From IMG/VR virus record IMGVR_UViG_3300027741_000001: DNA of 64,000 nt; one strand, given 5' to 3'. Positions 6,720 to 60,434 of the stretch are shown in pieces; the stretch's first letter is position 1; every line of letters starts with the position of its first letter. The translations under genes were made by a program, and so were the position numbers. The notes under the pieces are model-generated. The model was not told the origin of the DNA and searched no databases. It saw only the letters and a list, made by a program, of their open reading frames with translations. Origin of the DNA: a virus.

Positions 6720-6759
6720 TTTTTGTGTCCTTTCAGGGTTGATTTCGGCTTACTTAGAA

Positions 6760-6789
6760 AGTCTAAGTCTTTTGTTAGAAGTTTGTCAA
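6760..6789 (-). promoter_or_regulatory. early promoter
   Basis: TTGACA-N18-TAGACT. Confidence 0.7.
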
Positions 6790-6806
6790 GTTTCTATAAA
6801 AGTTTT

Positions 6807-7340
6807 TTAGAAGTGGAAATCCACTAAAACTAGGAACTGATTTTCAGGGTTAGCGTCTATACGCTTACGGAACTCCGACAAGTTGGTATCCCACATTTCC
6901 AGATCGTAAATAGCACTATCAGATACCCACTCACCATTTAGAAGTTCAGATAGTTTCTTAGCGTAATAGAGAGGCATACTTTCAGGAACAGACCAGTCTG
7001 CCTCGTGGTCGTAGTTGTGGCTGAACAAGATGTCCTGCTTGCCCTCGTTATAGAGCTTTTGTCTGTAATTGTCTATGTCTGCGTATCTGTGTTTTAGATA
7101 GATAGCAATAGCTTTTTCAGCAGTTTCAGGATCATCTGAATACCGGAGTGTGTCAAGCTCGGCTTTTTCGCCAAATACATTTTCACTTTCCCAGCGACCA
7201 GCGAAAGATACCTCTGAATTAGATGAAACTTCGTTCCAGTCAGACCACTTTGGTTCTCCGTCGCTGAACTTGTCGGCTACTATTCCTCTTGCCTGTTCGT
7301 GAGTGTCTGCCACAACTAGCATTATTTGTGAAGTGTGAAT
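6807..7340 (-). CDS. hypothetical phage protein (FAGRW / LVLVDFHF type), probable ATT start
   Basis: ORF open; the RBS GGAAGGACAC is spaced for ATT at 7340, not for the ATG at 7322. Confidence 0.75.
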   Translation of the reverse strand: MHTSQIMLVVADTHEQARGIVADKFSDGEPKWSDWNEVSSNSEVSFAGRWESENVFGEKAELDTLRYSDDPETAEKAIAIYLKHRYADIDNYRQKLYNEGKQDILFSHNYDHEADWSVPESMPLYYAKKLSELLNGEWVSDSAIYDLEMWDTNLSEFRKRIDANPENQFLVLVDFHF

Positions 7341-7368
7341 TTTAGTGTCCTTCCGTCTTTGTAGTTCT

Positions 7369-7398
7369 ATTGTATAACTTTTATTTCTATTCCGTCAA
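7369..7398 (-). promoter_or_regulatory. early promoter
   Basis: TTGACG-N18-TACAAT. Confidence 0.65.
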
Positions 7399-7620
7399 GC
7401 TGTGGAGTGTATTTCCTTGATCCTCTAAGTATTGTCTCAGACTGACCCCTGCTGACCACCCCCTAGATGTCGGTTCAATAAAAACTATGTCGTTGGCAAA
7501 TCCATTTTTGCCCCAACGCCACTCACCATTTATGTATTGTAGCTGTCCAGCATAGATGTATCCGTTTAGTAGGTCTAGGTCTAGGATTAGTTGCGCTCTT
7601 TTTATTCCTGTTATAGCCAT
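7387..7620 (-). CDS. hypothetical protein
   Basis: TAATG coupling with upstream gene; YINGEW motif. Confidence 0.65.
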   Translation of the reverse strand: MAITGIKRAQLILDLDLLNGYIYAGQLQYINGEWRWGKNGFANDIVFIEPTSRGWSAGVSLRQYLEDQGNTLHSLTE

Positions 7621-7835
7621 TAGCCCCACCACTCGGCTAACGGATTATGAGTTCTCAATGCCTCTAAATACATCTCGTCGGTTTCAGGTGAAATGTAAAG
7701 TTGTATCTCTACCGGAAAAGTTGGTTTTCCTTGTATAAGCATTTGCCATTTACCATTTACAAATCCGTATTCCCTATGACGAATTCTGTATTCCAGTTCT
7801 ATCTCGGTTTCTTTTCTTATGGTTGGTCGCATCAT
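7620..7835 (-). CDS. hypothetical protein, paralog of 7837..8049
   Basis: LEY...YGFVNGKW...DEMY...PL.E. Confidence 0.7.
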   Translation of the reverse strand: MMRPTIRKETEIELEYRIRHREYGFVNGKWQMLIQGKPTFPVEIQLYISPETDEMYLEALRTHNPLAEWWG

Positions 7836-7836
7836 T

Positions 7837-8049
7837 TTAGAAATCTTCCGATAGAGGTCGGCAGTGCTTGTCTAGCCAATTTCTATAACGCACTTCATCA
7901 GCAGGATCCTCAACGATAGTAATTTCTATCCCAAAAAGAGGTCTGCGCTTGTGTATGTAGTGCCACTTACCATTTACAAATCCAAAGTTTGCTACGAGTG
8001 TGTGATACTCCAAGCTAGACGGTGTTTCATTTCTATTTCTTATATCCAT
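7837..8049 (-). CDS. hypothetical protein, paralog of 7620..7835
   Basis: likely start MDIRNRN; FGFVNGKW motif. Confidence 0.7.
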   Translation of the reverse strand: MDIRNRNETPSSLEYHTLVANFGFVNGKWHYIHKRRPLFGIEITIVEDPADEVRYRNWLDKHCRPLSEDF

Positions 8050-8080
8050 ACCTAAATGGTACAGGTTATATAAAAGAAAA

Positions 8081-8326
8081 TCAAGCCACAAAGCCGGGTG
8101 AAAGAACCGGTGAAACGCAACCGTCGCACAGCAGGAACTCAATGTCCTCGTCGCTGTCGTCGGTTGATAAAACGATCACGCAAGGATAGAAACCGTTAGG
8201 TGTATAGGCGATCGGTTCGTCGCAGTTTTCGCAGACCTCGAATACGCCGAACGTAGTTAGCCCAAACTCCTCGGCTTGGACAGCGTCGTGTTCGTTGTTC
8301 ATAACGTGTAGCTCTATGTGTTGCAT
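8081..8326 (-). CDS. small Zn-finger protein
   Basis: CENC...CDGC; GGAG RBS. Confidence 0.7.
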   Translation of the reverse strand: MQHIELHVMNNEHDAVQAEEFGLTTFGVFEVCENCDEPIAYTPNGFYPCVIVLSTDDSDEDIEFLLCDGCVSPVLSPGFVA

Positions 8327-8384
8327 TTGGTCTCCGTTTCAGGTCTAATGCCATTTTACGGGACGTTCTTAATAGGTGATTTGG

Positions 8385-8618
8385 CTACTCCCAGTGTTCG
8401 AGACACTGCCTTTGTTCTTCCTCACTTTCGAAGATACGGATTACGTGAATACAAGGGTCTCCACCCTCGTCAAACTCGTTCTGTTCGGTTGCAGTCATAG
8501 GTGTTCCGTCGTGTGTGTTGCACACAACTTGTGGAATAATCCAGCCTTGTTTCTTTCCATAGTCCAGCCACTCGGCTAGGTCGGAGTTGCGTTCAGGGTC
8601 TTTTATAAAATCAGTCAT
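8385..8618 (-). CDS. hypothetical actinophage-type protein
   Basis: VCNTHDGTP...EGGDPCIHVIRI. Confidence 0.75.
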   Translation of the reverse strand: MTDFIKDPERNSDLAEWLDYGKKQGWIIPQVVCNTHDGTPMTATEQNEFDEGGDPCIHVIRIFESEEEQRQCLEHWE

Positions 8619-8622
8619 AGCT

Positions 8623-8817
8623 TTACTTTACTTTCTCTAAACAGACAGTGCAAATTTTTTCTAGACAAAAACCCTCGTTGTCGGTGTTGCACTCATAGTT
8701 GCACTCAAGGCTTGATTTATGTAGATATCTTTTGAATTGATGTAGGCAGTCCAAGTCTCTGGTCAAGTCAAACTTGAACCCCATTGAACTTGCTCTAATG
8801 ATGTCGGGAGTATTCAT
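8623..8817 (-). CDS. small Cys-rich protein, probably leaderless
   Basis: TTGACT...TACGAT ending 6 nt before ATG. Confidence 0.6.
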   Translation of the reverse strand: MNTPDIIRASSMGFKFDLTRDLDCLHQFKRYLHKSSLECNYECNTDNEGFCLEKICTVCLEKVK

Positions 8818-9004
8818 ATGTATATCGTATCGGTTTAATTGAAAAAGTCAAGAAGAATTTTTGCCATCGGCTGTGGAGCTAACTTCTGATGAGTTTCGTT
8901 GGAAGTTTGAGGATGCGAAAGCTTCCAGGCGGCGGGAACTTCAAATGAGGTTCGTTGGAAGTTTTTGCCTGGAAAGCTACTTTCAGATTTATTCCCGGTT
9001 TGGC

Positions 9005-9040
9005 AAAAAAAAATCCCCGCTGTTTAGGCGGGGAATTTTT
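9005..9040. terminator. intrinsic terminator
   Basis: TCCCCGC/GCGGGGA hairpin with A/T tails. Confidence 0.75.
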
Positions 9041-9308
9041 AGTCGAGTTCTGTCATATACCAATGTCGAAAAGCTATTGCTGTTCTTCTGTCTGCAGACG
9101 TCCATCGGTTTCTTATCCACTCGTCGTCAAACAACTCTGATGGTTTGTGAGGTTGTCTGACTCTAGTGTTTGCGTCTTTTAGATAGTCAATGCAATAGTA
9201 TGGCGATTTGTGTTGGAATGCTATCCACTCGCCCAAATGTTCAATGATGAAATATTGGCATGTGTCGCAAACTTTTAGTTCCCACTGTTTGTCATTGCCT
9301 ATACGCAT
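9039..9308 (-). CDS. hypothetical protein
   Basis: start MRIGND coupled by TAATG; CxxC. Confidence 0.65.
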   Translation of the reverse strand: MRIGNDKQWELKVCDTCQYFIIEHLGEWIAFQHKSPYYCIDYLKDANTRVRQPHKPSELFDDEWIRNRWTSADRRTAIAFRHWYMTELD

Positions 9309-9583
9309 TAGTTTTCCTCTTTGAAAATCCAATTGTTTTCAAAATCATGTCTGACATTTTCGTGGTCTTCGGCGCAACTAATGCACCACCACTCTCTATA
9401 TCCGTTAGACACATAATCAACGCATTCGCTGGCTAGTCCGTCTCCACACCCCTCGCAAGTGAAGCAGTTTGACCCGTTCATACAGTCAGAACATTGATAA
9501 TACTGTTTGTCTCCGGTTATAAACATTGAGGCTGCCCCGATGTTGGAGATTAGTTCGGGACAGGAGTAGCATTGCTTACTCAT
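9308..9583 (-). CDS. multi-CxxC Zn-finger protein
   Basis: four CxxC pairs. Confidence 0.7.
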   Translation of the reverse strand: MSKQCYSCPELISNIGAASMFITGDKQYYQCSDCMNGSNCFTCEGCGDGLASECVDYVSNGYREWWCISCAEDHENVRHDFENNWIFKEEN

Positions 9584-9794
9584 CGTAGTAGCCTTCCTCG
9601 TCAGCCTCTTCGTCGAGGTCTTGACAACAACTCATACACAATCCGTGTTCGAGCATTTCTTCTGGGGTTTCAGTAGAGCAGTCTCTGCATGTGTTCTCGC
9701 AGTTTGTGCAGGCGGTTAGCTCGCCTAGTTCAGTAAAGATCATAGACGTCGGTTGCCATATCAGGCACCTCGTGCATTTTAGATTTTCTTCCAT
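9576..9794 (-). CDS. multi-CxxC Zn-finger protein with acidic tail
   Basis: four CxxC pairs, DEEADEE tail. Confidence 0.7.
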   Translation of the reverse strand: MEENLKCTRCLIWQPTSMIFTELGELTACTNCENTCRDCSTETPEEMLEHGLCMSCCQDLDEEADEEGYYDE

Positions 9795-9835
9795 ATAAGT
9801 AAGTTATCACCTTATATAAAAGAATGCAAGTTTAT

Positions 9836-10618
9836 TTATGGAATTACTGTAAAAAAGTTTCCGGTCTCTAAAGCGAGACGTTCGAGGCTTGGAAAGTCTG
9901 GAATGCCGGTTACGCTGCTTCCGATGTATCCGATTCTTCGTTGGAAGTTTGCGAAGGCTGCAGTCGTTTTGTGGTCCCACTCTCCTCGCTTAGCTCCGCG
10001 CAAACCAACGGTCATACCGAGTGCAAGTTGGATAGTTGTTACGTACGGGTGCTTGAGTCCTGGAATGATGACTGAACTTTTAACGAACGGCTTCGTTGGA
10101 AGTTTACCTGGGTCCGGATCGCTCCTCTCCTCCTGCTTCGAAAATGTTCGTGAGAAGTTTGGCCGCGCGAAGGCAAGCACGTCGTAAACATATCGGTTTC
10201 GTCTGTAGACGCCATCATTGGCCTGGCTGCCTTTTGGAGTTCCGTTGGAGGTTTGAGCTTCGATCGTCTGAAACATCCCGTGCTTTAAAAAGTGCTCGAC
10301 GTCAGTGACGATTCCTACGTGAGGCATACCCAGATCTCCTCCGTTGGAAAAGCTGAAGAAGACAATGTCGCCTGTTTTTGGTCGAACGTGCGTCATCCCT
10401 CGTTGGAAGTAGTAGCTCAGAGCTGCAGCTGTGTGCACATGGGATGGCAAGTTCAAACGAACGGTTCGTGCGATCACGTCGATGAAGCTGCCGTTCCAAT
10501 CCTTGTCTGGGTACCCAACCAGTTCTCCGTACGTTGAACCTTTGTTCATACGTGCTTGATACCCAACGTGGTTACCAGCTTCCCTAAGGAATGCTTCGCG
10601 GTTCGCTCTCGTCATCAA
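9836..10618 (-). CDS. CHAP-fold protein with C-terminal peptidoglycan-binding domain; catalytic Cys absent
   Basis: PKTGDIVFF, HVGIV, TIEAQT, DGVYRRNR; TIQLAL...DHKTTAAFANFQRR PG-binding motif. Confidence 0.8.
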   Translation of the reverse strand: MMTRANREAFLREAGNHVGYQARMNKGSTYGELVGYPDKDWNGSFIDVIARTVRLNLPSHVHTAAALSYYFQRGMTHVRPKTGDIVFFSFSNGGDLGMPHVGIVTDVEHFLKHGMFQTIEAQTSNGTPKGSQANDGVYRRNRYVYDVLAFARPNFSRTFSKQEERSDPDPGKLPTKPFVKSSVIIPGLKHPYVTTIQLALGMTVGLRGAKRGEWDHKTTAAFANFQRRIGYIGSSVTGIPDFPSLERLALETGNFFTVIP

Positions 10619-10790
10619 TCTCTCCGGTCGTTAGAAGTTTCTCCAGGGCCTGCAGCAGCAAAGCTGCTTCGTTGGCTCTGGCTGTAAGTCTTATATGTTC
10701 TAGTCTAGTGGACGCCTGGTTAACGTCTGCAGCAAGCTGGGATGCGAGTTCACGTGCGTTCGTTAGAAGTTGCGGATCCGAGCTATGCAT
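10584..10790 (-). CDS. hypothetical protein
   Basis: 68-aa ORF with GGAGG RBS between TerS-like and CHAP genes. Confidence 0.7.
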   Translation of the reverse strand: MHSSDPQLLTNARELASQLAADVNQASTRLEHIRLTARANEAALLLQALEKLLTTGEIDDESEPRSIP

Positions 10791-10795
10791 GTCGG

Positions 10796-11821
10796 TTAGT
10801 CCTCCTGGATTTCTGCGTCGATGACGTCTTCGTTGGAAGTTGTAGATCCGGCAGCGGGTGCAGCTGCAGCTTCCTGGTTCGGATCAACTTCGTTGGAAGT
10901 TACCAGGATGCCTGCCTCACTGAGCTTAGACGCAGCTTCAATTGCGTTCGTTGCAAGTCGGTTCAGACGTTCAGCAATGATGCTTGCGGCCGGACGAACA
11001 TCTAATGAGATGTTGGTATCAATTTCCATTCCTCCACGTACTCCGGCTCGGTCAAGAATTTCGGTGGCGGCTTTAAGCTTTACCGGTTCACTCTCAGCGA
11101 ACTCCATCATTTGTTCTAGAACGTCGACGGCGTAAGGAGCTGCCTGGAATAACTTCTGACGAGCTCGTTCGATGTCATCGCCTGGACGATGCTTCACTGA
11201 CCTGAGGTGGATGCGGCAAAGTCCGTCATCTTGTAGACGTCCTGAAGACCAGAGCTGGCAGCGGATCCCATCATCCTTTACGTTGGAACATCTCGTTGGA
11301 AGTGCGGCCGGCTTTCTCTTTCCAGACGTAGGCGGGCTGGATTGTTCTTTTATATAAGCACGGGTTGCGCCGATGACCCAAGGTGGGCAGATGTAGTCGG
11401 AAGCTTCTTCAGCGATGAGATCGAGGCCCGTTAGATAATCTGAGTTTTTGTTCGTTGGATCTGACAGGATGGGTTTCTTTTCAGCAAGAGAGAGGATACG
11501 TTTCTCGGTTGCCATTTCTGATGAGATAGCTTGGATCAATCCCGTTGGAACTCCGTTGGATGCGTAGACCGGTATCCAGTTGAACTTCGCACGACGTAGG
11601 AGTTGTCGGTTTTCAAACGTATCTTCGCAGACGCCGCGGTCGCTCTCTTCAATGCCGAGGAGTGAAAGGTCTGGACGTAGGTTTAAAGGTTCATTGATTT
11701 CTATAATAGGAGCTTCGAGCTCTGGAGTTTCGAAAGGATCTGAAGGGATGGCCTTAACTTCCAATGGACGTTCATTAGAAGTTGAGGATCCGGATCCTAG
11801 ATCCGAGCTATCGTCTGTCAT
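10796..11821 (-). CDS. putative terminase small subunit
   Basis: C-x9-C...CRIH Zn motif followed by AVDVLEQMM...EPVKLKAATEILDRAG, typical of TerS-like proteins. Confidence 0.6.
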   Translation of the reverse strand: MTDDSSDLGSGSSTSNERPLEVKAIPSDPFETPELEAPIIEINEPLNLRPDLSLLGIEESDRGVCEDTFENRQLLRRAKFNWIPVYASNGVPTGLIQAISSEMATEKRILSLAEKKPILSDPTNKNSDYLTGLDLIAEEASDYICPPWVIGATRAYIKEQSSPPTSGKRKPAALPTRCSNVKDDGIRCQLWSSGRLQDDGLCRIHLRSVKHRPGDDIERARQKLFQAAPYAVDVLEQMMEFAESEPVKLKAATEILDRAGVRGGMEIDTNISLDVRPAASIIAERLNRLATNAIEAASKLSEAGILVTSNEVDPNQEAAAAPAAGSTTSNEDVIDAEIQED

Positions 11822-12035
11822 ATGTTCCTTCGTTCGAAGTTTGGATCGGATGGAGTCAACCGGGGAGAGGCTCGTGACTCCACCCGACCTCTTTTGCGTT
11901 TGTTTTTGTAAACGCTAGTAAGGGGAGCCTCTTCCGCAACCTCTTTTATATAAGGTTGATAGTTCTCATTATGGGGGTAGTTTGAAAAGTTTTTTAGGCG
12001 TGAGGTGTGAGAACGCTACTCTTTCTGGTTTAGAA

Positions 12036-12078
12036 ACAAAAAAATCCCCCCGAAACCATAAGGCTTGTAGGGGGGACT
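12036..12078 (-). terminator. intrinsic terminator
   Basis: CCCCCC/GGGGGG stem with U-tract on minus strand. Confidence 0.55.
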
Positions 12079-12113
12079 AAGTAAAGTTTTGAAGTTTTAC
12101 TTTTTAAAATAAA

Positions 12114-12584
12114 CTACTTGGCAAATTTGCCTCTGCTGTCTTTTTTCTGTACCAAGGCTCTTTCACGAAGTTTTTGGTTTCTTTCTTCGTTTTTGTAGAA
12201 AGGCTCACGATATGAAAGCTCGGCCACTTCATCTCTGTGAACTAAATAGTATTTATCATTACCTAGAACATAATACTTTTGTAGTCGTCCTTGATTGATG
12301 TGGTAATTTAATGCTCTTCGATTTAGGTAAAGCATTTCAGCAGCTTCATCCAAAGTAACCAAATCAGGGTGAACTTCTAAAACACGGTCTAGCCATTTAG
12401 ACGCTAGCCGAGCTTCATTGAGATCGACCAGAAAGTTCCAACCATTTGGGTTTTGATATCTTTTTAGTCTGCCTTTTTTAATCCAGTAGTGAACCATACC
12501 GACAGTAACGTAAAGAGCTTTACCTGCTTCTTTTGCAGTTACCAACTCTACTTCTTTTTCTTGCAATTGCATATCTCCCAGCAT
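12114..12584 (-). CDS. tandem excisionase/MerR-like HTH DNA-binding protein
   Basis: two repeats of LVT..EA...L.....V/L.Y.I..GRL..Y. Confidence 0.8.
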   Translation of the reverse strand: MLGDMQLQEKEVELVTAKEAGKALYVTVGMVHYWIKKGRLKRYQNPNGWNFLVDLNEARLASKWLDRVLEVHPDLVTLDEAAEMLYLNRRALNYHINQGRLQKYYVLGNDKYYLVHRDEVAELSYREPFYKNEERNQKLRERALVQKKDSRGKFAK

Positions 12585-12754
12585 TCTTGAGTTTTTTCTA
12601 GCCTAGCATTTCTGTCTGACAAAACTCTAATTCTGCGTTGTTCTTTTAAATCATCATCTAGTCCCCAAATAGTAGGGGGCCAAGTTTTAGGAGGTTCAGG
12701 TGGATCGATTATAAACCTTCCAACAGAATTTCTAAGCGGTTCACTAATGCTCAT
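12548..12754 (-). CDS. hypothetical protein, paralog of 12751..13032
   Basis: RNSVGRFI...RNARLEKTQECWEICNC. Confidence 0.65.
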   Translation of the reverse strand: MSISEPLRNSVGRFIIDPPEPPKTWPPTIWGLDDDLKEQRRIRVLSDRNARLEKTQECWEICNCKKKK

Positions 12755-13032
12755 TGGGTTCCTTTACTTTTTTCCTTGCAATTGCATTCTCCCCAACATT
12801 CTTGAGTTTTCTCCAATTCGGCGTTTCTCTCTAATAAATTTTGTATTTTATATCGTTCTCTTAAGGAATCGTTATGTTGAAAAATTACATCTAATGTTTC
12901 ATCATCCATGCTTAAGGTGTAAGGCAGCGGTAGTCCTAATTCTGGGTCGGAAGGATATATAAACCTTCCAACAGAATCTCTAATCGGTTCACCATTTGCT
13001 TTTTTCAAAGGTTCATTGTTCTTTGGATTCAT
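12751..13032 (-). CDS. hypothetical protein, paralog of 12548..12754
   Basis: RDSVGRFI...RNAELEKTQECWGECNC. Confidence 0.7.
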   Translation of the reverse strand: MNPKNNEPLKKANGEPIRDSVGRFIYPSDPELGLPLPYTLSMDDETLDVIFQHNDSLRERYKIQNLLERNAELEKTQECWGECNCKEKSKGTQ

Positions 13033-13162
13033 CTACTTCTTCTTCTTCTTCTTCTTTCTTGCTGGGATGACATTTGGTGCAATCACAATACCAAATCTTG
13101 TCGTAATATTTAATTTCTGTTTTGCAGTTTTCGTGATGACCCGTGGCACAAAAACCGCACAT
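13013..13162 (-). CDS. small Cys/His Zn-binding protein
   Basis: MCGFCATGHHENC...WYCDCTKCH, read manually. Confidence 0.65.
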   Translation of the reverse strand: MCGFCATGHHENCKTEIKYYDKIWYCDCTKCHPSKKEEEEEEVDESKEQ

Positions 13163-13166
13163 TGGT

Positions 13167-13649
13167 CTACTCGGGTTCTTCGCCCTCATTAAAATCCTCT
13201 GGTGTCGGGGGTTCTGGATATTCTTCTAGGTAGGATACAAATGCTTCGTAAAGCATATCCGGAGTTAATTCTGGAGTATCTTCGTCAATTTCTTCTTCGT
13301 ACTCTTCCATAGCTGTTCGTTCGAACTCTAGATCATCTTCAAACTCTTTCTCTTCTCTAGAAAGTTCATTGTAGTAGTCATCTTCTTCGGCTTGACGATT
13401 TGACTCTTCTTGACTTTTTTCCATCCACTGATCAATAACTTTAATTAGCTCGCCCATTGTTAAATATTTTATAACCCCATTCCAATCTTCAGAGTTGCGT
13501 AAAGCTAGTCTAAGCAAGTCCACTGACATTTTCAATCGTTGCATATCAGCTGGCATACTTAACACTCTCAAAACTTTAAGTCCGGGGAGTTCGTGCATTG
13601 GCATAACTTCCAATTCGATATCGGAAATCTCTAAAACTATATATTCCAT
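13167..13649 (-). CDS. acidic hypothetical protein
   Basis: 160-aa ORF, E/D-rich C-terminal half. Confidence 0.75.
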   Translation of the reverse strand: MEYIVLEISDIELEVMPMHELPGLKVLRVLSMPADMQRLKMSVDLLRLALRNSEDWNGVIKYLTMGELIKVIDQWMEKSQEESNRQAEEDDYYNELSREEKEFEDDLEFERTAMEEYEEEIDEDTPELTPDMLYEAFVSYLEEYPEPPTPEDFNEGEEPE

Positions 13650-14134
13650 TACAGACCTTTCGAAACAAGAGGGGTGATTTTAAGTTTTGGATCATTGGAG
13701 AAGGTTATACCCCAACCCTCGCATTGAGGGCAGTCTTCCGTATTCACCCTATGAACTATTCCGGTGCCTGTGCATTTAGGGCAAGTGATAAGTATCTCAC
13801 CATTTAGATTTTCATATTCATAAACGCTTTCCAGCTCTATATCAGAAATCTCTAATTCAACTATTTTTTCCATAATTTTCTGGATAACTTCATTGGCATT
13901 GAACTCGCTAATGGTATTCATGTATTGCTCAATCCAGACTTTAACAATTGTGCCTTTGGCACTAATTGAATAAGTTGCTCTGCCAGTAACATCTTCTCTA
14001 ACGCCGATGCTTTTGTAGATTACATCTCGAGCGATCTGAACTGCTTCATCTAGGTATTTAACTTCTAAGTATTGACCTTGCTTTGTGTATCTGAACTCGG
14101 CGTAGGTCTGAACTATTGGTCTATCTATTGTCAT
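13649..14134 (-). CDS. hypothetical protein with DnaJ-type Zn-finger repeats
   Basis: CPKCTGTG...CPQCEGWG. Confidence 0.75.
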   Translation of the reverse strand: MTIDRPIVQTYAEFRYTKQGQYLEVKYLDEAVQIARDVIYKSIGVREDVTGRATYSISAKGTIVKVWIEQYMNTISEFNANEVIQKIMEKIVELEISDIELESVYEYENLNGEILITCPKCTGTGIVHRVNTEDCPQCEGWGITFSNDPKLKITPLVSKGL

Positions 14135-14158
14135 TATGTATTTATCCTATCGGTTATC

Positions 14159-14608
14159 TTATCGGCAGTCAACACAAAGAAATGCGTTGTACCCGTGTTT
14201 ACCATTTTGAGAGATCGCTACTGGACTAATTGGCTTTTCCACATCACATCTATCGCATTTAGGATCAATCAGCCACTTAATCTCTACTCCAAGAGATTTT
14301 GCCTTAGACATAGATTTACTCAAAGCGTGTGAAGTTCCTGATCCATTAGTTTTTCTCAAAAACAGTCTTGTATCAGATACTTCCAAAACTAGACGAATCT
14401 GCTTACAATCGCAAGCCATCCTGGTTGGGTTACAAGCTACAACATCAGCATAAGTTGAATGTCTTGTATTTGGGTGTCCGCAGATACAGATCCGTCCATC
14501 ACGTTCTCTAGTTCGAATAACTTCTTCTTCTGCAACTTGTAAAGCTTCTTCTTCCGAGAAATCGAAAAAGCTCATTGCATCCTTATTTTCTTCCAATTTT
14601 ATCTCCAA
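14159..14608 (-). CDS. Cys-rich Zn-binding hypothetical protein
   Basis: CICGH...H...C...CDC, CDRC, CVDC. Confidence 0.75.
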   Translation of the reverse strand: MEIKLEENKDAMSFFDFSEEEALQVAEEEVIRTRERDGRICICGHPNTRHSTYADVVACNPTRMACDCKQIRLVLEVSDTRLFLRKTNGSGTSHALSKSMSKAKSLGVEIKWLIDPKCDRCDVEKPISPVAISQNGKHGYNAFLCVDCR

Positions 14609-14766
14609 TCGATAATTAAAAATGATACCTTACGAAACAACTATAACACAACTAAAAACCCATTTATTGGTTTATTTCAACCTTTTTTTACTACGCGTAT
14701 AGAGAAAAAATTCCGCATTAAGGGAAAATATAGTTGCAATAAACCATAAAGTGTATATTGGATTAG

Positions 14767-14873
14767 TTATACTATCAACTTTTTTACAAAAACTTTTGTT
14801 TTTTCCGATAGTATCTCTACCATAGATACTATTCACTTTTTGCAATAACTTTTCAAAATATCTGATAGTATCT
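14767..14873. repeat. two tandem 50-bp inverted-repeat elements (operator/origin candidate)
   Basis: 14767-14816 and 14824-14873, AGATACTAT-N32-ATAGTATCT (first copy degenerate on the left); third copy at 47403. Confidence 0.85.
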
Positions 14874-14912
14874 TTTATAGTTGTACACAAGATCCCTCGA
14901 AAGGACCCCCCG

Positions 14913-15323
14913 ATGAGTTGTCGTGAAACACCAGATTTTGACGAATCCGAGGTCCTTATGTACAAAAAATTACACAAAAAAGCTTCTGGAAACCCTTGGA
15001 TATTCTCCACGTTTAAGGGTGACGAATATCCTCCAGACATCATTCTTTCGATAGTTTTAAGTGCGGCAGCTTGGCCGGTAATGATCTGGTATTGGACAAA
15101 ATCATATCTTTGGCCTATTTTCTCAATTCTTCTATCTACGGCACTTTTGGCAATTTGCTTCAATTTAGGCTCTTTCTATCTTTATGTCTTAATTGGCTAT
15201 TTCAGCGCATTATTCGGAATTACAAGCTGGCTCCTAATTGGCTTTGCTCACGGAACTACCCCAAAACACAGAGAAATGACCATAAAAGAGTGGTCAGACC
15301 ATATTACTAAAGATTTAGATTAA
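14913..15323 (+). CDS. membrane protein
   Basis: about three hydrophobic helices. Confidence 0.65.
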   Translation: MSCRETPDFDESEVLMYKKLHKKASGNPWIFSTFKGDEYPPDIILSIVLSAAAWPVMIWYWTKSYLWPIFSILLSTALLAICFNLGSFYLYVLIGYFSALFGITSWLLIGFAHGTTPKHREMTIKEWSDHITKDLD

Positions 15324-15393
15324 AAGGTCATAAACCCGATTCTGCGGTAAAATAGATTCGGGAGAGATACACCTCTATAGAGAGATATCTCAT

Positions 15394-18279
15394 ATGAAAC
15401 GCAACAAATCAAAAAAAGTGCCACAAATCATTATTGTGACACTTCTTTCGGGATTACCGATCTGCTATGCAGAATCAGCTTTAGCTACTTCTTCTTTCGG
15501 TTTATTAGAACAGAAGCAATCGAGCTCACAACAATCAGTGAAACCCAACCAACTACTAAACCAACCCAAAAACTATCTAAATTCACGGTTACAATCATCT
15601 CTAACTCCTTCAGTTGAGGATCTTAATACTCTAAAGTCTACACTAGCTGACTACAACACGCAACTTGACACACTAATCAGCAAACAGCCTACAAACGACT
15701 CCCCAGAACTTCAAACAGCCATTAAAAAAGCTCAAACAGCTATCCAGACTCTAAAAACTGACGTTTCTGACCTTGAATTGGCCTTAACTACCTATAACAA
15801 TGCCAAAACTGCTCTTACCTATGCTCTAAAAGCACAAACTCTTGCGGACAAAGACGCACAGGATAAGAGAAAGATCCTCAGCTCATCGCAAACTTCCCAC
15901 GAAGCCACGAAACAACAATTAGAAGTTCAGAAGACCGCCGTAGCTCAAGCTCAAACTCAAGCCACAGAAGCAGATGCAAGTGCGCTCCAGGCACAGGAAC
16001 TTCTAATGAAGACGACGGAAGCACTGACGCAGCAGAAAGCCATCACAGCTCAGGCACTACAAACTTTAAACGAACGTCAAACTGACGCCATCGCAGCATC
16101 GTCAACATATACCCAAGCACAACAAACACTTACAAATGCAGAAGAACAGAAAGCACAAGCAGAAAGAAATCTTTCAGCTGCAACTTCCAACAAAGCACAA
16201 GCACAGAAAAACTTAGCTGCAGCTACCGTCCAACTTCAAACGAAGCAATCAGAAGTTAACTCATCCAGGGAGATCTACAATTCCGCCGTTGCCCACTACA
16301 ACCAAACTTTAGATGAGTACAACCAAGCTTATGACTGGTATCTATATACACAACAGAACGTCAACTTAACACGCACTAATCTTCAAGCAGGACAACAAAA
16401 CCTAGACCAAGCACAGTGGAACTATGACAATAACCTCATCCCAGATCCAACGTGGACACCAGCAACTTACCAACAAGAGCACACCAGGCAAGTTCCAACG
16501 ACCACTCTTGTTCCAGTAACAACTACCACCCTTACTGGTGGACTAACCGCTGATTCATTCAACAGGCAGAATTACTCATCCCGCCCTCCTCTTCCAACTT
16601 CTAACGAAACTCCTATTGCAACTCTTAACGTTCCAAATATTAACTACCAATGGGGCGGAGGTAGTGTTCTAAACTCAGGTAGGTATGACCGAGTCCTCGT
16701 TCGCTTCACCGGCCAGCTCTCGGCCCCGGTCACCGGCGACTACCAGTTCTACGCCCCCGCGGACGACGGCGTCATGCTCTACCTCAACGGTCAGCTTCTG
16801 GTCAACGACTGGCGCGACAAGGGCGGCGGCGGGTCCACCTCGGTCCCCGTCCACCTCGAGGCCGACACCCCCCAACAGCTGACCCTCTACTTCTACGAGA
16901 ACGGCGGCGGGGCAAACGTCTGGCTTTACTACGCAACTCCAACCACAGGCTTCCAGATTGTTCCAGCAGCCTACTTAGGCACAACTGCTACCACTACAAC
17001 CACCTACGTCGAACAAACCACATACATCACCGAAACCTATTACACAACTGAAGTAATTCCTAACCAAATAGCCCCACTTATTCACGACCCCGCTCTACTT
17101 CCTGACCTAAAGAACGCACAGATCTACTACGACGCAACTGTTCTATCAAACCAGCAAGCAGAAGAAGACTGGCAGTTAGCACAAGCAGATCAACAACAAG
17201 CAGCTCAGAACTCTACAACTGCTTACAACCAAGTTATAGATACTGCCACCACTCTGAACGCCCTTTCTTCAGATCTGGACGTCGAACAAAACGCATTCAA
17301 CCAAGCCCAGGCAACTTCTAACGAAGCAGATTCAAATTTCCAGAAAGCACAAAGCGTGCGATTAGAATCCCAGCAAAATTTGGCATCAGCTGAACAAACT
17401 GCAAACGAAGCAACCCAGTATTTAGCTGGATCTAATGCACAATTACAGGCAGCTCAACTTGCTTATAACATAGAAGAACAAAAAAACCAAGAGACTAAAA
17501 CTTCCAACGAACAAGCAAAGACATCATTGGAAGCAGCATCCTCAGCTCAATCTCAAGCCCAAGCAAATCTAGAAACACAAACAAGCTTGCTAAGCTCTGC
17601 AACTTCTAACGAAGCTCAAGCTCAAGTTGACGCAGATCTAGCTGCAGCAAACTCAACCCAAGCTGACACCACATCAAACGAAGCATCAAGTACAGCACAG
17701 CAAGCTCAGATCACCACCGACAACTCATCAACCTCATTCCAGTCTTCATTGGAAGTTGCCCAGGCTACCATTCTCACAATCCCAAACCTCATCAAAGAAG
17801 CCACCGACATCTTCAGCACACCACAGGGCTCAGCAGATATTCCAACAAATCTAGATGCAAGCAACTTACAGGACATTGATTTAGCTCAAATTGACCCAAC
17901 AGAACTTAGCCCAGAACAAGCCACACTACTTGTAGCAGCTGCTCTAGAAACCTTCAATACAGCCACAGAAGGCTCTCCAGAGTACAATCAAGCCCTAGAC
18001 GCCCTTTACCTAGCTGCACAGCAAGATGACATTGTTGTTGACGAGTCCCTAGCCAATATCCCGGGTGTTGGACAGGCTGCAGTAGCCATTGCTAACGTTT
18101 TGAACTTAGTTGGCAACGTTGGAGCCGATATTTCACCTAAAGCCCGTAAAAAAGCTCAAAACCTTGTTGTAACCACCCTTGTTGTTGGACAAATTGCCCA
18201 AGCAGCAGCTCTAGCTACCGCCAGTTCAGGCGGTTCATCTAACAAAACAAACAGAATAAACAGGAAGACAGGAAAGTAA
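15394..18279 (+). CDS. large exported coiled-coil protein with central PA14 domain
   Basis: signal peptide, Q/A heptads, INYQWGGG...VRFTG...ADDGVMLYLNG...YFYENGGGA PA14 motifs. Confidence 0.85.
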   Translation: MKRNKSKKVPQIIIVTLLSGLPICYAESALATSSFGLLEQKQSSSQQSVKPNQLLNQPKNYLNSRLQSSLTPSVEDLNTLKSTLADYNTQLDTLISKQPTNDSPELQTAIKKAQTAIQTLKTDVSDLELALTTYNNAKTALTYALKAQTLADKDAQDKRKILSSSQTSHEATKQQLEVQKTAVAQAQTQATEADASALQAQELLMKTTEALTQQKAITAQALQTLNERQTDAIAASSTYTQAQQTLTNAEEQKAQAERNLSAATSNKAQAQKNLAAATVQLQTKQSEVNSSREIYNSAVAHYNQTLDEYNQAYDWYLYTQQNVNLTRTNLQAGQQNLDQAQWNYDNNLIPDPTWTPATYQQEHTRQVPTTTLVPVTTTTLTGGLTADSFNRQNYSSRPPLPTSNETPIATLNVPNINYQWGGGSVLNSGRYDRVLVRFTGQLSAPVTGDYQFYAPADDGVMLYLNGQLLVNDWRDKGGGGSTSVPVHLEADTPQQLTLYFYENGGGANVWLYYATPTTGFQIVPAAYLGTTATTTTTYVEQTTYITETYYTTEVIPNQIAPLIHDPALLPDLKNAQIYYDATVLSNQQAEEDWQLAQADQQQAAQNSTTAYNQVIDTATTLNALSSDLDVEQNAFNQAQATSNEADSNFQKAQSVRLESQQNLASAEQTANEATQYLAGSNAQLQAAQLAYNIEEQKNQETKTSNEQAKTSLEAASSAQSQAQANLETQTSLLSSATSNEAQAQVDADLAAANSTQADTTSNEASSTAQQAQITTDNSSTSFQSSLEVAQATILTIPNLIKEATDIFSTPQGSADIPTNLDASNLQDIDLAQIDPTELSPEQATLLVAAALETFNTATEGSPEYNQALDALYLAAQQDDIVVDESLANIPGVGQAAVAIANVLNLVGNVGADISPKARKKAQNLVVTTLVVGQIAQAAALATASSGGSSNKTNRINRKTGK
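15891..17613 (+). repeat. right cluster of dispersed motif AACTTCYAACGAA
   Basis: perfect copies at 16596, 17313, 17499, 17601; one-mismatch copies at 15891, 15998, 16182, 16232. Confidence 0.85.
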
Positions 18280-18479
18280 TGAAAAAACTAGGAAAGTTCC
18301 TATCAGACCTACTAAAAGACCTACTTGACCAAGCTTGGACCCTACTAGGTTTAGCTTTAGGTTGGGTACTTCTAGAAGGCTCAGCAAGAGATATCGTAGG
18401 AAAACTAATTGGAGTCACACTTCTAATCTGGGTACTCACATTCCCTATTAGACGTGAAAAAGACGAGGATGACGAGTAA
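18279..18479 (+). CDS. small two-TM membrane protein (holin-like)
   Basis: two hydrophobic segments, charged tail, upstream of M23 peptidase. Confidence 0.7.
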   Translation: MKKLGKFLSDLLKDLLDQAWTLLGLALGWVLLEGSARDIVGKLIGVTLLIWVLTFPIRREKDEDDE

Positions 18480-18679
18480 TGTTTGCTTATTTAAAGCACT
18501 ACTACTTTATAAAACACAAAGATGTCTCTCTGCTTGCATTAGAAGCTTGGAGAGAGTACATCAAAGGTAAACCACGTATCTACAATATGGATATTTGTCA
18601 CAATTTTCAAAAAGGGTTTATTAACACTTACCGTCACAATTATGCTAAGGCTCAACTAGCCTTAAATAAAGCGTTGTAA
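18479..18679 (+). CDS. hypothetical protein
   Basis: 66-aa coupled ORF. Confidence 0.6.
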   Translation: MFAYLKHYYFIKHKDVSLLALEAWREYIKGKPRIYNMDICHNFQKGFINTYRHNYAKAQLALNKAL

Positions 18680-18720
18680 AATTAACTGTAACACCCAATC
18701 ACTATTAAGGAGACAAAATT

Positions 18721-19254
18721 ATGGCCGTTGAAGTGACATACTTCGAACCATTTGATCCAAAGCTTCGCGGAGACGAGCTTGGAAACTTAGCACCATATCG
18801 TAACGGACGTCCACATCGTGGACAGGACTGGCATCCAAAGGAGAAGAGCCCAATCAAGGCTATCTGCGATGGCACAGTTGGTCTTGTTGCTTGGACCGAT
18901 GTACTAGGACACATCCTTGTTCACTCTTCAGCAGATGGCAAGCACTGGGTTCTATACGCACACCTCGCAGTAGCACCTACCCTAAAGAAGGGTGACAAAG
19001 TTGTTGGCGGTCAAACCGTTCTAGGTCTAGTTGGTGGCGGTAAGAACACACCAAGCGGATCCGCAAGTACCGGGGCCCACCTTCACATGACTGTTGCCAC
19101 AATGGGAAAGAACTTTGCAGGAGTTGAAGCACACTTGCTTCCATTCGAGCGTCTAGTTGACCCACTAAAGCTTTTCACAGCAGCTCCTAAGAAGTCTGTT
19201 GCAGCAAAGGTTGTATCCGCCGTCAAGAAGGTAGTTCCTACCAAGAAGGCGTAA
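18721..19254 (+). CDS. M23 peptidase (endolysin candidate)
   Basis: HRGQD, YAHL, STGAHLH motifs. Confidence 0.9.
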   Translation: MAVEVTYFEPFDPKLRGDELGNLAPYRNGRPHRGQDWHPKEKSPIKAICDGTVGLVAWTDVLGHILVHSSADGKHWVLYAHLAVAPTLKKGDKVVGGQTVLGLVGGGKNTPSGSASTGAHLHMTVATMGKNFAGVEAHLLPFERLVDPLKLFTAAPKKSVAAKVVSAVKKVVPTKKA

Positions 19255-19310
19255 TAAGCTAGCCCGGAGATAAAGGTGTAATTAAAACACGTAATAAACC
19301 TGACCGGTAG

Positions 19311-19348
19311 AAAGAAGCCCCCACCTGACGAGGATGGGGGTTTTCTTT
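19311..19348. terminator. bidirectional terminator
   Basis: GCCCCCA/TGGGGGT hairpin between convergent genes. Confidence 0.65.
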
Positions 19349-19557
19349 TACTTCTTTTTTAATTTACTAATTAATTTTCTTATTGGCCACAGAAGAATCC
19401 AAAAGCATTTAAATATTGTATGTAGTACCCAAATAAATAAAACTAACGAAGTTAACATAAATAAAGTTAGTGGGAACTGACTTCTTTTAGGAAGTTTAGA
19501 TCTTGTTTTTACAGTAGCTCTATAGCTAAACGGTTGATTCCTACTATTTCTCGGCAT
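19348..19557 (-). CDS. small membrane protein
   Basis: basic N-terminus plus hydrophobic helix. Confidence 0.5.
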   Translation of the reverse strand: MPRNSRNQPFSYRATVKTRSKLPKRSQFPLTLFMLTSLVLFIWVLHTIFKCFWILLWPIRKLISKLKKK

Positions 19558-20029
19558 GAGTCACCCAGTAGTAATTACAACCCTCACAACAGGGTTTATT
19601 ATCTGGATCACTTACAGAATCAAAGAACTGAAAGTAGTACACAGGATCTTTCTTATAAAGATTTGCCTTGTGTGTAGCCAAAACTCTATGGCTTTTATCA
19701 GAGTCATGGAACCAGTTAGGTAGTCCATTACCCCAATTATCATAATTTGCTAAGAACAAATTCTTGATATTGATTACGTTATTTATAGTTTTTATGCCAC
19801 GTTTGTCAGCTTCTTTAACGCAACACATAATGTAAGCCAACAATGATTTTTCGTGCCCACGCCACATCTTTACTGCAGGGTGATTACGCCATCCGGCTTT
19901 AGGGTCGTCACTCGATAGAACTTTAAGAATCTGATAACCCTCTAGAATCTGCTTGTTCAATCGCTTATTGTCTAGCACTTGCGCGGACTGATCAAAGTCC
20001 TTATATGGTAGAAATGTTTGCATACTCAA
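19544..20029 (-). CDS. pyrimidine-dimer DNA glycosylase-like, MSMEG_6728 family
   Basis: MQTFLPY...LDNKRLNKQILEGYQI...WRNHPAVKMWRG. Confidence 0.9.
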   Translation of the reverse strand: MSMQTFLPYKDFDQSAQVLDNKRLNKQILEGYQILKVLSSDDPKAGWRNHPAVKMWRGHEKSLLAYIMCCVKEADKRGIKTINNVINIKNLFLANYDNWGNGLPNWFHDSDKSHRVLATHKANLYKKDPVYYFQFFDSVSDPDNKPCCEGCNYYWVTHAEK

Positions 20030-59781: not shown

Positions 59782-60434
59782 TCTAAAGAGTCGTAAATAT
59801 TTTTAACTGTAGTGGCGTACCATTTCCCTCCATTTTGGGTTGGTACGCCATTATTGTTTAATCGTCTAGCTATTTCGTGAAATGAAAGACCAGAATCTTT
59901 CTGTTTTCTAATTAGATCTTTTACTTCATTAGAAGTTTTATTTTTAGGTCCCATATCAACACCCCATTTAATACCTCGGGCCCGTCGATCTTTATGGACG
60001 TCCTTTTGACGCTCTGCAATAATTCCACGTTCCATCTCTGCCAGGGCAGACATAATTGTAACCACAAACCGTCCTTGATAGCTAGCTGTGTCTAGATTTA
60101 AATCAAGCATTACTAGACGCCATTTGTTAGCATTGGCTCGGTCTATGATGCTCAGGAAGTCCTTCGTAGAGCGGGCTAGGCGGTCGATACGCGTCACAAA
60201 CAGGGCTGAAGCAGTCCCAGTATCCAAACGTTTTAAAGCGCCTGTAAGAGCCGGACGGCCCGTAATTGACTTACCTGAGCGACCCTCCTCACGGACAAGT
60301 TCAAACTCTGTGTACCCAGCTAGTTCAGCAGCTTGACGTAGCTGACGTTCTTGAACATCTAATGAAACTCCGTCACTTACCTGCAGTTGAGTAGATACAC
60401 GAGCATACAAAAGAGCTATTCCTTGATCAGACAC
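59778..60434 (-). CDS. serine recombinase (resolvase type)
   Basis: YARVST, SG, DRLARS; short C-terminal recombinase HTH. Confidence 0.93.
   Translation of the reverse strand: MSDQGIALLYARVSTQLQVSDGVSLDVQERQLRQAAELAGYTEFELVREEGRSGKSITGRPALTGALKRLDTGTASALFVTRIDRLARSTKDFLSIIDRANANKWRLVMLDLNLDTASYQGRFVVTIMSALAEMERGIIAERQKDVHKDRRARGIKWGVDMGPKNKTSNEVKDLIRKQKDSGLSFHEIARRLNNNGVPTQNGGKWYATTVKNIYDSLD

Follow-up and report, generated by a model that had tools for sequence, protein, structure and literature searches.

Why would a large uncultured freshwater actinobacterial phage carry about 30 copies of a single word, running in the same direction and embedded in the coding sequence of a few genes for packaging, lysis and a surface protein? 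The word is an asymmetric 13-mer, AACTTYNAACGAA, and we studied it in a 64-kb stretch of the phage DNA, hereafter the window. The 11-mer core occurs perfectly 12 times in the window, against 0.04 copies expected by chance, and its count never exceeded one in any shuffle. All 12 lie exactly where a sequence-only reading of the window had placed them, eight on the minus strand (8897, 8953, 9939, 10094, 10629, 10761, 10831 and 10891) and four on the plus strand (16596, 17313, 17499 and 17601), and no other perfect 11-mer was found in the whole window. When one mismatch to the 13-mer is allowed, the number rises to 23 (0.26 expected), and 21 of these 23 copies follow the sense direction of the local genes. 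The variants proposed by that reading at 10149, 10243, 10401, 10949, 11294, 11773 and 11831 and at 15891, 15998, 16182 and 16232 are present with one or two mismatches, but the one at 11543 is weak, with at least three. Additional one-mismatch copies are located at 6771 and 59925 (minus strand) and, in antisense, at 10075 (plus) and 17745 (minus); the copy at 59925..59937, AACTTCTAATGAA, is isolated and lies in sense within a minus-strand ORF (59778-60434). Two complete relatives (135,096 and 137,503 bp) each have 18 perfect matches to AACTTYNAACGAA, all in the same two clusters, and the word was not found in their remaining 125 kb. The claim that no perfect copy exists elsewhere thus holds for the window and for both of these genomes, in which the perfect copies are clustered instead of evenly spread. 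The oriented 13-mer is real.

The left array (8895..11841, minus strand) consists of 11 copies with at most one mismatch and about five with two, together with antisense partners at 10075 (one mismatch) and 11756 (two mismatches). It extends over the 5' UTR and coding sequence of a small-terminase-like gene, a 68-aa gene, an endolysin gene and an intergenic stretch past the operon terminator, and this layout is common to at least 10 relatives. The small-terminase-like gene (10796..11821, minus strand), the first gene of a putative terminal repeat, encodes a 341-aa protein that has a profile match to the core helices of the PaP3 small terminase (PDB 7joq, E 7.6e-4) and is homologous to the product of gene 1 of phage Big4 and its relatives, which is annotated as a small terminase in phage Cece; the word copies are located in its variable N- and C-terminal tails. 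One copy, AACTTCGAACGAA (11829..11841, minus strand), ends 7 nt before the ATG of this gene and overlaps the ribosome-binding site, and forms with the copy at 11771 the most conserved pair, at -20/+38 relative to the gene start. The 68-aa gene (10584..10790, minus strand) has two copies in frame 1 (QLLTN and KLLTT), and the copy positions in the endolysin-like gene (CHAP/NlpC-P60; 9836..10618, minus strand) are conserved across relatives. Two pairs of copies are inverted, one head-to-head at 10075..10104 with a 4-nt spacer and the other at 11756-11783 with a 2-nt spacer, and inverted pairs with 1-4 nt spacers are also found in relatives. At the far end of the array, two perfect intergenic copies (8895-8907 and 8951-8963, minus strand), 56 bp apart and each with a GAAGTT half-site after it, are located in the interval from the operon terminator (9014-9034) to the first early promoter (predicted, -35 at 8851); this junction holds two to four copies in relatives.

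The right array (15891..17613, plus strand), comprising eight copies with at most one mismatch and three with two, is contained entirely in the gene for a 961-aa surface protein (15394..18279, plus strand) with a signal peptide, a PA14 domain, Q/A/T-rich coiled regions and a C-terminal membrane anchor, and its copies mostly encode T-S-N-E. Two 66-aa genes and then an M23 peptidase gene (18721-19254) lie 3' of it. In one relative (L014), the 961-aa gene keeps the right array even though it is about 4 kb farther from the terminase-like gene; on this comparison, the arrays appear to track genes rather than distance.

Selection acts on the nucleic acid and not on the protein, a view the sequence-only reading had reached and that several comparisons support. 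The word is found in all three reading frames (as NFQR, KLPTK/LLTN and TSNE) and in three intergenic copies. Shuffling of synonymous codons yielded 0.6 perfect copies, with a maximum of 4 in 2000 shuffles, whereas 10 were observed. Third positions of the endolysin gene are conserved across relatives at 49 of 60 positions inside the sites compared with 470 of 1215 elsewhere, in pooled comparisons that are not independent. Moreover, alignment of the terminase-like gene revealed that its copy-bearing tails are lineage-specific and missing from relatives that lack the word. That the word is a functionless by-product, produced by chance, protein repeats or codon-pair bias, is of practically negligible probability. 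Many right-array copies do encode an identical T-S-N-E peptide in a low-complexity protein, as such a by-product would, but the three frames and intergenic DNA, the absence of either array from any longer tandem repeat, the persistence of sites where gene flanks have diverged, the excess over chance and over the synonymous-shuffle null, the third-position conservation and the confinement to two clusters, with none in the other 125 kb of the complete relatives, contradict it.

The word also changes in concert across lineages. Position 6 has changed from C to T jointly at many orthologous sites in three relatives (L009, L011 and L014), and in another (L058) the architecture is unchanged while the word has become AACTTC(K)CATTAR. 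This concerted change supports a trans-acting reader. The candidate encoded at 12114..12584 (minus strand) is a 156-aa protein predicted to contain two winged helix-turn-helix (wHTH) domains of the Xis/MerR/BldC type. It has Pfam matches to HTH_17 and MerR and PHROG matches to excisionase and MerR-like families, and its structure model (pLDDT 75) has two repeated domains. The individual domains match the folds of BldC, Pukovnik Xis and RacA, while the whole chain matches the tandem protein TraN weakly; the PDB entry names describe BldC and Xis as bound to DNA repeats. The gene co-occurs with the word, its family being found only in word-bearing genomes, and is missing from two complete genomes without the word, which makes the earlier proposal of the tandem HTH protein as binder a reasonable one, although the co-occurrence is confounded by shared descent. 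The exceptions, L006/L007 and L037, have the word without the gene in records that are 14-53% complete. Variation of the wHTH domains showed no simple tracking of change in the 3' half of the word, and some lineages with a single wHTH domain retain the full 13-mer. The small-terminase-like protein, the other binder proposed, is an unlikely reader, because its conserved core is invariant in relatives in which the word is missing.

One further copy lies outside both arrays. The single copy AACTTCTAACAAA (6771..6783, minus strand) abuts a -35-like TTGACA (6784-6789) within the spacer of the promoter predicted, by consensus as for all promoters here, for a conserved 175-aa gene (6192-6719), and a copy abutting or overlapping TTGAC(A/T) occurs 5' of this gene in at least five lineages (the window with L005 and L008, L010, L014, L016/17 and L019). 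The early block, previously described as free of sites, thus contains a copy that, judged from sequence, is at an operator position in a predicted early-type promoter.

The sequence-only reading had taken the strand switch at 14.6-15.4 kb as the landmark from which the two clusters point away. The relevant landmark is more probably a terminal-repeat boundary near 12.0 kb. Contig depth changes about 2-fold at ~12.0 kb in three runs, the depth being about 2-fold below this coordinate, and a contig starts at 11979. In Microbacterium phage Big4, which has a terminal repeat of 17,669 bp, the physical genome end is 62 bp upstream of the homologous gene 1. The depth step fits a long direct terminal repeat starting just 5' of the small-terminase-like gene, with its boundary at 11940..12010. 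The left array, starting about 150 bp inside this putative boundary, would occupy the first 3 kb of the repeat, and the right array would lie in unique DNA. The mirror layout consists of only two arrays, each internally consistent, and is by itself a 1-in-2 event.

Given this position, the left array might be a pac- or cosB-like packaging signal that marks the left repeat boundary and is recognized by the wHTH or terminase-like protein, a reading we regard as unlikely. Small-terminase genes often contain or adjoin pac and cos sites, and in P1 and SPP1 the cut site is bordered by repeats. Consistent with such a role, the array begins close to the boundary and continues through the terminase-like gene, whose product has the small-terminase core motif and whose homolog is the end-proximal gene 1 of Big4; the wHTH gene adjoins it across the junction, and the N-terminal wHTH domain weakly matches a PHROG small-terminase family. 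However, the copies are scattered across 3 kb, a second array is found at 3.9-9.5 kb from the boundary and is carried along with its gene, and one copy is in a predicted early promoter 5 kb away. In addition, relatives that share the gene order and whose orthologous terminase core is invariant lack the array, including Big4, whose ends are known, and the complete relatives have no array elsewhere and therefore none at the other repeat boundary. The arrays could alternatively control DNA entry or anchoring by halting or retaining DNA, whether incoming or packaged, at the inner side of an early block that would enter first, in the manner of the T5 injection-stop region or of a RacA-type tether between DNA and a cell structure, which seems quite improbable. 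In the early block (1-8 kb), ACGT, ATAT, CATG, CGCG, GGCC, GTAC, TGCA and TTAA are stripped out, and these words reappear just before the first copies at 8.9 kb; arrays lie on both sides of the putative boundary; one wHTH domain matches RacA; and the T5 region, too, is rich in repeats at the boundary of its terminal repeat and has inverted copies separated by 3 kb (10.1101/866236). Against this, the candidate binder gene is beyond the arrays and therefore would not be expressed before the stop unless the virion carried the protein; DNA moving one way would meet the two arrays in opposite senses, as they are inverted; and the T5 region is non-coding and made of host DnaA boxes.

Polarity toward DNA ends or forks would also be expected if the sites were Chi-like attenuators acting on a helicase-nuclease that enters at the terminase cut, fork barriers or iterons belonging to an origin in the AT-rich region at 14.6-15.4 kb, a group of roles we consider very improbable. 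Both arrays would place 5'-TTCGTTRGAAGTT-3' on the strand ending 3' at the putative boundary, the geometry required of a Chi-like site, and the pair of clusters, separated by 4 kb, is reminiscent of the repeats at ori and crr in phage P4. Nevertheless, 13 fixed bases are long for a Chi site (5-8), no array lies at the far right genome end, and the distance from the right array to the boundary is variable; for any of these roles, the promoter-embedded copy is unexplained and the mirror arrangement rests on two arrays only. It is quite unlikely, too, that the mRNA form, AACUUCYAACGAA, is the target of an RNA-binding protein, nuclease or small RNA controlling transcript stability or translation. 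The strong sense-strand bias would accord with this, as would two copies that end 7-8 nt 5' of start codons beside ribosome-binding sites and the possible hairpins of copies paired with a downstream GAAGTT or an inverted copy. In contrast, the promoter-spacer copy lies 5' of the predicted transcript start, two copies are past an intrinsic-terminator-like hairpin, an Rfam search gave no match at the sites, no complementary RNA is encoded in the window, and the sole co-inherited candidate found has a DNA-binding fold.

Among the functions the sequence-only reading had offered (packaging or terminal-repeat definition, injection stop, origin-flanking loading sites and L5-like stoperators), the last fits best, because the 13-mer is asymmetric, co-oriented with transcription in 21 of 23 copies and, in at least five lineages, present within a predicted promoter spacer. 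As a monomer, the L5-type repressor recognizes an asymmetric 13-mer by means of two HTH-like domains, and its sites are oriented with transcription (PMC9283540). The operators and stoperators of Cluster A mycobacteriophages (L5 gp71 and the TipsytheTRex repressor) resemble the present sites in being an asymmetric 13-mer in more than 20 copies, matching the direction of transcription on both arms, occurring at a promoter and inside transcribed DNA, and belonging to a phage of an actinobacterial host, and their reader, like the candidate here, has two HTH-type domains in one chain (PMC9283540). L5 stoperators, however, are mostly intergenic, genome-wide and serve prophage silencing, whereas the present sites are mostly within coding sequence in two operons, where the encoded proteins accommodate the word. 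For the tandem winged-helix candidate of the Xis/MerR/BldC type, no relation to gp71 was detected, and the phage is large, with an apparent long terminal repeat and no sign of lysogeny. The sites here are for the most part intragenic and clustered, each operon having 10-16, and the phage appears lytic; one or two roadblocks should suffice. The left array, about 150 bp from the putative boundary and over the terminase-like gene, also fits packaging.

Other systems share fewer features. BldC of Streptomyces and excisionases (lambda Xis and Pukovnik Xis) have the domain fold of the candidate and form cooperative head-to-tail multimers on oriented direct repeats, but these are a few adjacent repeats within tens of bp, whereas about 30 sites here are spaced 50-230 bp apart over kilobases and the two domains are fused in one chain. 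The repeats of pac and cosB (lambda R sites, P1 hexamers and SPP1 pacL/pacR) are similarly short, in or beside a small-terminase gene and near a DNA end, but occupy 100-300 bp around the cut, in contrast to 3 kb plus a second array 4-9 kb away. The start-associated sequence (SAS) in mycobacteriophages of Cluster K is also 13 bp long and oriented, with some copies just 5' of start codons; it is strictly upstream of starts and contains the ribosome-binding site, whereas only two of about 30 copies are start-proximal here. The T5 iss is also repeat-rich, at the inner edge of a long terminal repeat beside first-entering early genes, with inverted copies kilobases apart (10.1101/866236). It is, however, non-coding, contains host DnaA boxes together with many different repeats and shows conservation throughout the T5-like phages, unlike the single, gene-embedded word confined to one sub-clade.

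We therefore tentatively favor, at somewhat less than an even chance, the reading of the word as operator and stoperator-like sites for the 12114-12584 wHTH protein. AACTTYNAACGAA would be an asymmetric site bound by a phage-encoded, sequence-specific DNA-binding protein, for which this tandem winged-helix protein is the best candidate, and the reader would affect transcription in a direction-dependent manner. One copy is at an operator position in the spacer of a predicted early-type promoter, and dense co-oriented arrays lie within two operons, one of the small-terminase-like gene, the 68-aa gene and the endolysin gene and the other of the 961-aa surface-protein gene with the M23 peptidase gene downstream. 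We infer the identity of the reader, the repression of elongation and the logic of timing: bound protein may slow or block RNA polymerase within the array operons, as at the stoperators of mycobacteriophage L5, and packaging and lysis functions would thereby be kept off until the regulator is removed or titrated.

The window belongs to a large tailed phage, with PHROG and Pfam matches to a DNA polymerase, a helicase, a primase, a ribonucleotide reductase, tail fibres and endolysins. Its closest named relative is DSL-LC01, an uncultured Actinomycetia phage from lake water (polymerase 78% identical), followed by the Microbacterium phages Big4, Zooman, Pumpernickel and others (186–195 kb); no near-identical phage records were found. 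The runs containing most of the stretch are all freshwater metagenomes, and one run with a small share of it is marine. The stretch also carries a phage-encoded tRNA-Met (29747–29821, minus strand) and a full-length tmRNA (29278–29579, minus strand; Rfam, 116 bits), whose tag peptide, AERTSAFALAA, could be a clue to the host lineage. Long repeat runs with a 9-bp phase (GGTACTCAAGG and TACAAGGTA) at 34270–34590 and 37600–38180 encode collagen-like Gly-X-Y stretches in tail-fibre-type genes.

A search of the window for the core AACTTCYAACG recovered all 12 perfect copies located earlier by a sequence-only reading, eight on the minus strand from 8897 to 10901 and four on the plus strand from 16596 to 17611, compared with 0.04 in dinucleotide-preserving shuffles. 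Eleven bases are fixed in the full site, an asymmetric 13-mer that occurs in 23 copies at no more than one mismatch (0.26 expected), and about 10 further copies with two mismatches lie in the same two stretches. The left array (8895–11841, minus strand) covers the gene for a 341-aa terminase-like protein (10796–11821), a 68-aa gene and an endolysin gene, while the right array (15891–17613, plus strand) lies inside a gene for a 961-aa surface protein (15394–18279, plus strand). Because conservation is absent from the flanks of the copies and Tandem Repeats Finder reported nothing over both arrays, the copies are dispersed short sites and not fragments of a longer repeat. Head-to-head inverted pairs with spacers of 1–4 nt are recurrent. 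A search for paired copies in 185,579 prokaryote genomes gave six matches, all of them unrelated longer tandem repeats in assorted MAGs, which offered no hint of the host, and we know of no consensus of a host transcription factor, sigma factor, DnaA, parS or LexA that resembles the word. In 21 of the 23 copies the site is sense to the local genes, the effective sample being two arrays and two single sites. The mirror-image layout described earlier involves just two arrays and might therefore be a matter of a coin toss.

The proposal that selection acts on the nucleic acid and not on the protein is borne out in several ways. The word occurs in three frames of four unrelated genes (frame 0, NFQR; frame 1, KLPTK and QLLTN; frame 2, TSNE), frame 0 being restricted to the C form since the T form would make TAA, and three copies are intergenic. 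A codon-shuffled null and synonymous-site conservation in relatives, both suggested by the sequence-only reading, agree with it. When synonymous codons were shuffled within genes with the proteins kept, 0.6 perfect 11-mers were obtained versus 10 observed (maximum of 4 in 2000 trials), and at one mismatch the figures were 2.2 and 16. In codon alignments of the endolysin gene with relatives, the site positions are conserved, and third positions match in 49 of 60 comparisons inside sites versus 470 of 1215 elsewhere in the gene, these pooled comparisons not being independent. The copies in the 341-aa gene lie within low-complexity N- and C-terminal tails that are missing from relatives without the word, and in the 961-aa gene a variant word imposes Phe on a polar coil (QTFNE in the related contig L014, QTANE in the window).

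The arrays are shared by part of the phage group. The 18 perfect matches to AACTTYNAACGAA in two complete relatives (135,096 and 137,503 bp) are all located in the same two clusters, over a span of about 9 kb, compared with 0–1 matches for the reversed word, so the statement that no perfect copy occurs elsewhere holds for both complete genomes. At least 10 lineages of related viral contigs have a common architecture, consisting of two copies that bracket the start of the 341-aa gene (about −20 and +38), further copies through the 68-aa and endolysin genes, 2–4 copies past the terminator of the operon and, within the large divergent gene, an array in mirrored orientation. Position 6 of the word is C in the window and T at many orthologous sites of L009, L011, L014, L016 and L037. 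Lineage L058 has the same architecture with the word AACTTC(K)CATTAR, in which the 5′ half is kept and the 3′ half altered; four copies with a spacing of 52–59 bp precede its first early promoter (L058:13070–13250), and additional ones lie in its endolysin and large genes. As judged from these sequences, the concerted change of the word points to a trans-acting reader with a lineage-specific preference. Arrays of this kind are absent from DSL-LC01, from Big4 and from more distant relatives, and k-mer discovery in the first two found no analogous clustered word. Among relatives lacking the word, AACGGCAAGC (L020, L025, L030 and L042) and CGCGAGCGCG (L034 and L039) were considered as functional analogues and dropped because their layout differs. 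Clusters of ACGGCAAGC and pairs of GCATGGAAAAA, present at L025:12130–12300 and in L020, L023, L030 and L042, all without the 13-mer, lie at the junction of the endolysin and early genes and again about 5 kb further on, and are probably sites of a different regulator.

The sequence-only reading had named two candidate binders, the terminase-like protein and a tandem helix-turn-helix protein, and the evidence separates them. The former is unlikely to be the reader, because its conserved core is invariant in relatives lacking the word. The latter, a 156-aa protein (12114–12584, minus strand) with two HTH_17/MerR-type domains, belongs to a family found solely in contigs carrying the word and missing from two complete word-less genomes; the exceptions to this co-occurrence (L006/7 and L037) are fragments, 14–53% complete. 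The version of the protein in L058 is 44% identical and, as a reader, would be expected to prefer AACTTCKCATTAR. A comparison of its domains with the two halves of the word across lineages gave an ambiguous pattern. Its relatives in viral contigs were found in the same phage group only, and hence no independent lineage tests the link between protein and word. The predicted structure (pLDDT 75) contains two repeated winged-helix units; its single domains resemble BldC, Pukovnik Xis and RacA at Foldseek probabilities of 0.99–1.0, and the best match for the whole chain, the tandem protein TraN, is weak. These are per-domain similarities only, Foldseek returning nothing at E ≤ 0.001 for the model. 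Small cysteine-rich, zinc-ribbon-like proteins (9039–9794 and 12548–14608) flank the terminase-like operon and this gene, and one of them (13649–14134) has weak matches to HNH endonucleases and DnaJ-type zinc fingers.

Two further features bear on function. At 6771–6789, a copy lies in the spacer of a consensus-predicted promoter (TTGACA abutted by AACTTCTAACAAA) of a conserved 175-aa gene, which is an operator position, and at least five lineages have a copy placed likewise ahead of the ortholog of this gene. In L014, additional genes separate the large gene from the terminase-like one by roughly 4 kb more, and the right array moves along with the large gene, which argues against a role set by distance from a DNA end. 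The early genes on the minus strand of 1–8800 have promoters of a stereotyped form (AACTTGACAAA, 17 nt, TAnnnT-like) together with GAAAGGA as ribosome-binding site, and the version of DSL-LC01, TTCTAAAGATGTTATAAT and ACGACGAAAGGACAA, stands ahead of about 17 small genes. Downstream of the 961-aa gene, 18279–19254 holds two 66-aa genes and then an M23 peptidase, so that both array-bearing operons include a cell-wall hydrolase.

Profile comparison of the 341-aa protein with PaP3 TerS (PDB 7joq, E 7.6e-4, with ...LKAA.EILDRAG aligned) identifies the core pair of helices of a small terminase; the structure prediction for the protein was too poor for a fold search (mean pLDDT 49). Gene 1 of the Microbacterium phages encodes its homologue; this gene occurs twice per record and, in Big4, whose repeat is 17,669 bp, lies 62 bp from the left end. 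The order of the terminase-like gene, small genes, endolysin and early genes is the same. Depth on 1–20000 was examined with assembled contigs from four freshwater runs. In three of these, the fragmented ones, summed k-mer depth is higher below about 12.0 kb (~28 versus 13, ~33 versus 17 and ~8.8 versus 4.9), these depths being per contig with related strains summed, so that a recombinant strain mixture could mimic the step. One contig begins at 11979. The better reading is a long direct terminal repeat that starts in the conserved intergenic region 11842–12113 (at about 11940–12010) and has its other boundary beyond the window start; it is preferred over a strain mixture because three runs agree and because of the homology to Big4. 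The left array would then occupy the initial 3 kb of the repeat, starting some 150 bp inside the boundary, and the right array would be in unique DNA, 3.9–5.6 kb outside the repeat. At 11931, a 1-nt indel variant has about half depth in two runs. The region 11842–12113, whose high conservation extends to a relative with only 79% identity in the protein, contains nested inverted repeats (GAGGCTC...GAGCCTC and GCGTTT...AAACGC) and may be a terminus, pac or leader element. The early block at 1–8 kb contains no ACGT, ATAT, CATG, CGCG, GGCC, GTAC, TGCA or TTAA; GCGC and TCGA are nearly absent, and AGCT, CTAG, GATC, AATT and TATA are still present. The avoided palindromes reappear from about 8.0 kb, the palindrome-free block adjoining the left array, and the pattern looks like restriction avoidance in first-exposed DNA.

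Our tentative reading, to which we give somewhat less than an even chance, is an operator and stoperator-like system in which a phage regulator would bind the asymmetric 13-mer. One site would act at the predicted promoter, and many co-oriented ones would act within two operons, one for the terminase-like protein and endolysin and the other for the surface protein with the downstream M23 peptidase. Among the options raised earlier, L5-like stoperators are the best fit as far as the manner of working is concerned. The L5 system likewise has an asymmetric 13-mer, an orientation tied to transcription and a monomeric reader with two HTH-like domains (PMC9283540); a 13–14 bp site in many copies that follows transcription has its counterparts here in the 13-mer and its co-orientation, and the copy next to TTGACA, in a promoter predicted from consensus, may correspond to the L5-type site that overlaps a lytic promoter. 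However, L5-type sites occupy short intergenic gaps genome-wide, whereas ours are mostly intragenic and all fall in some 9 kb of a genome of 135 kb, and L5-type phages are temperate with a gp71-family repressor (HTH plus stoperator domain), whereas the candidate here is a tandem winged helix of the HTH_17/MerR type. A fold search with this candidate returned Xis, BldC and TraN and not an L5-type repressor, and no integrase was found in the stretches examined. We file the system as one that works like stoperators and not as a member of the L5 system, because the sites are mostly in genes and clustered, the candidate reader is of another fold family and nothing indicates lysogeny.

A packaging signal at the repeat boundary would account for the terminase gene at the left array and for the array's position about 150 bp inside the boundary suggested by the depth step and the mapped end of Big4. 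We consider it unlikely, since the sites are spread out, the second array is bound to a gene well outside the boundary, one copy sits at a predicted promoter and relatives with the same terminase core have no arrays. A T5-like entry stop or anchoring device is very unlikely; it would suit the palindrome-free early block beside which the left array lies, and the T5 iss region is likewise repeat-rich and boundary-straddling (10.1101/866236), but the gene of the candidate binder is located behind the arrays, which are moreover inverted. The T5 injection-stop consists of non-coding repeats with DnaA boxes at the inner end of the first-step-transfer DNA, whereas most of our sites are in coding sequence and there is no DnaA box in the word. 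A signal acting at the RNA level, with the form AACUUCYAACGAA, seems just as improbable; Rfam gave no match within or close to the arrays. The least probable of these alternatives is a Chi-like, fork-polar or iteron function, Chi-type hotspots being words of 5–8 nt, shorter than the 13-mer, that are over-represented and skewed in the host chromosome.

An elaboration that we regard as quite unlikely is that the arrays and the winged-helix protein form a gene-embedded timing or gating device, coupled to copy number, of a lytic phage whose genome carries a long terminal repeat. A virion genome would carry about 45 sites, owing to duplication of the left array in the repeat, and these would keep the packaging, lysis and surface-protein operons silent and might, in addition, retain the DNA at the border of the first-entering early block, which is free of restriction sites. 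Replication would multiply the sites, titrate the binder and bring about release. The expression of late genes, or the second step of DNA entry, would in this way be linked to the number of genome copies by sites that have evolved within protein-coding sequence.

If the stoperator-like reading holds, polar control of this type is not limited to temperate mycobacteriophages and would also operate in a large group of actinobacterial phages from fresh water that are uncultured and probably lytic. The arrays would, moreover, show with unusual clarity how a DNA signal can take precedence over protein sequence, as in the tails inserted in the terminase-like protein and the non-conservative residues in the surface protein. 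The 13-mer and the 156-aa protein make a compact, testable pair for orientation-dependent blocks to transcription, and the long terminal repeat, the early block without restriction-type palindromes and the arrays at their junction can be tested jointly as three features of these genomes.
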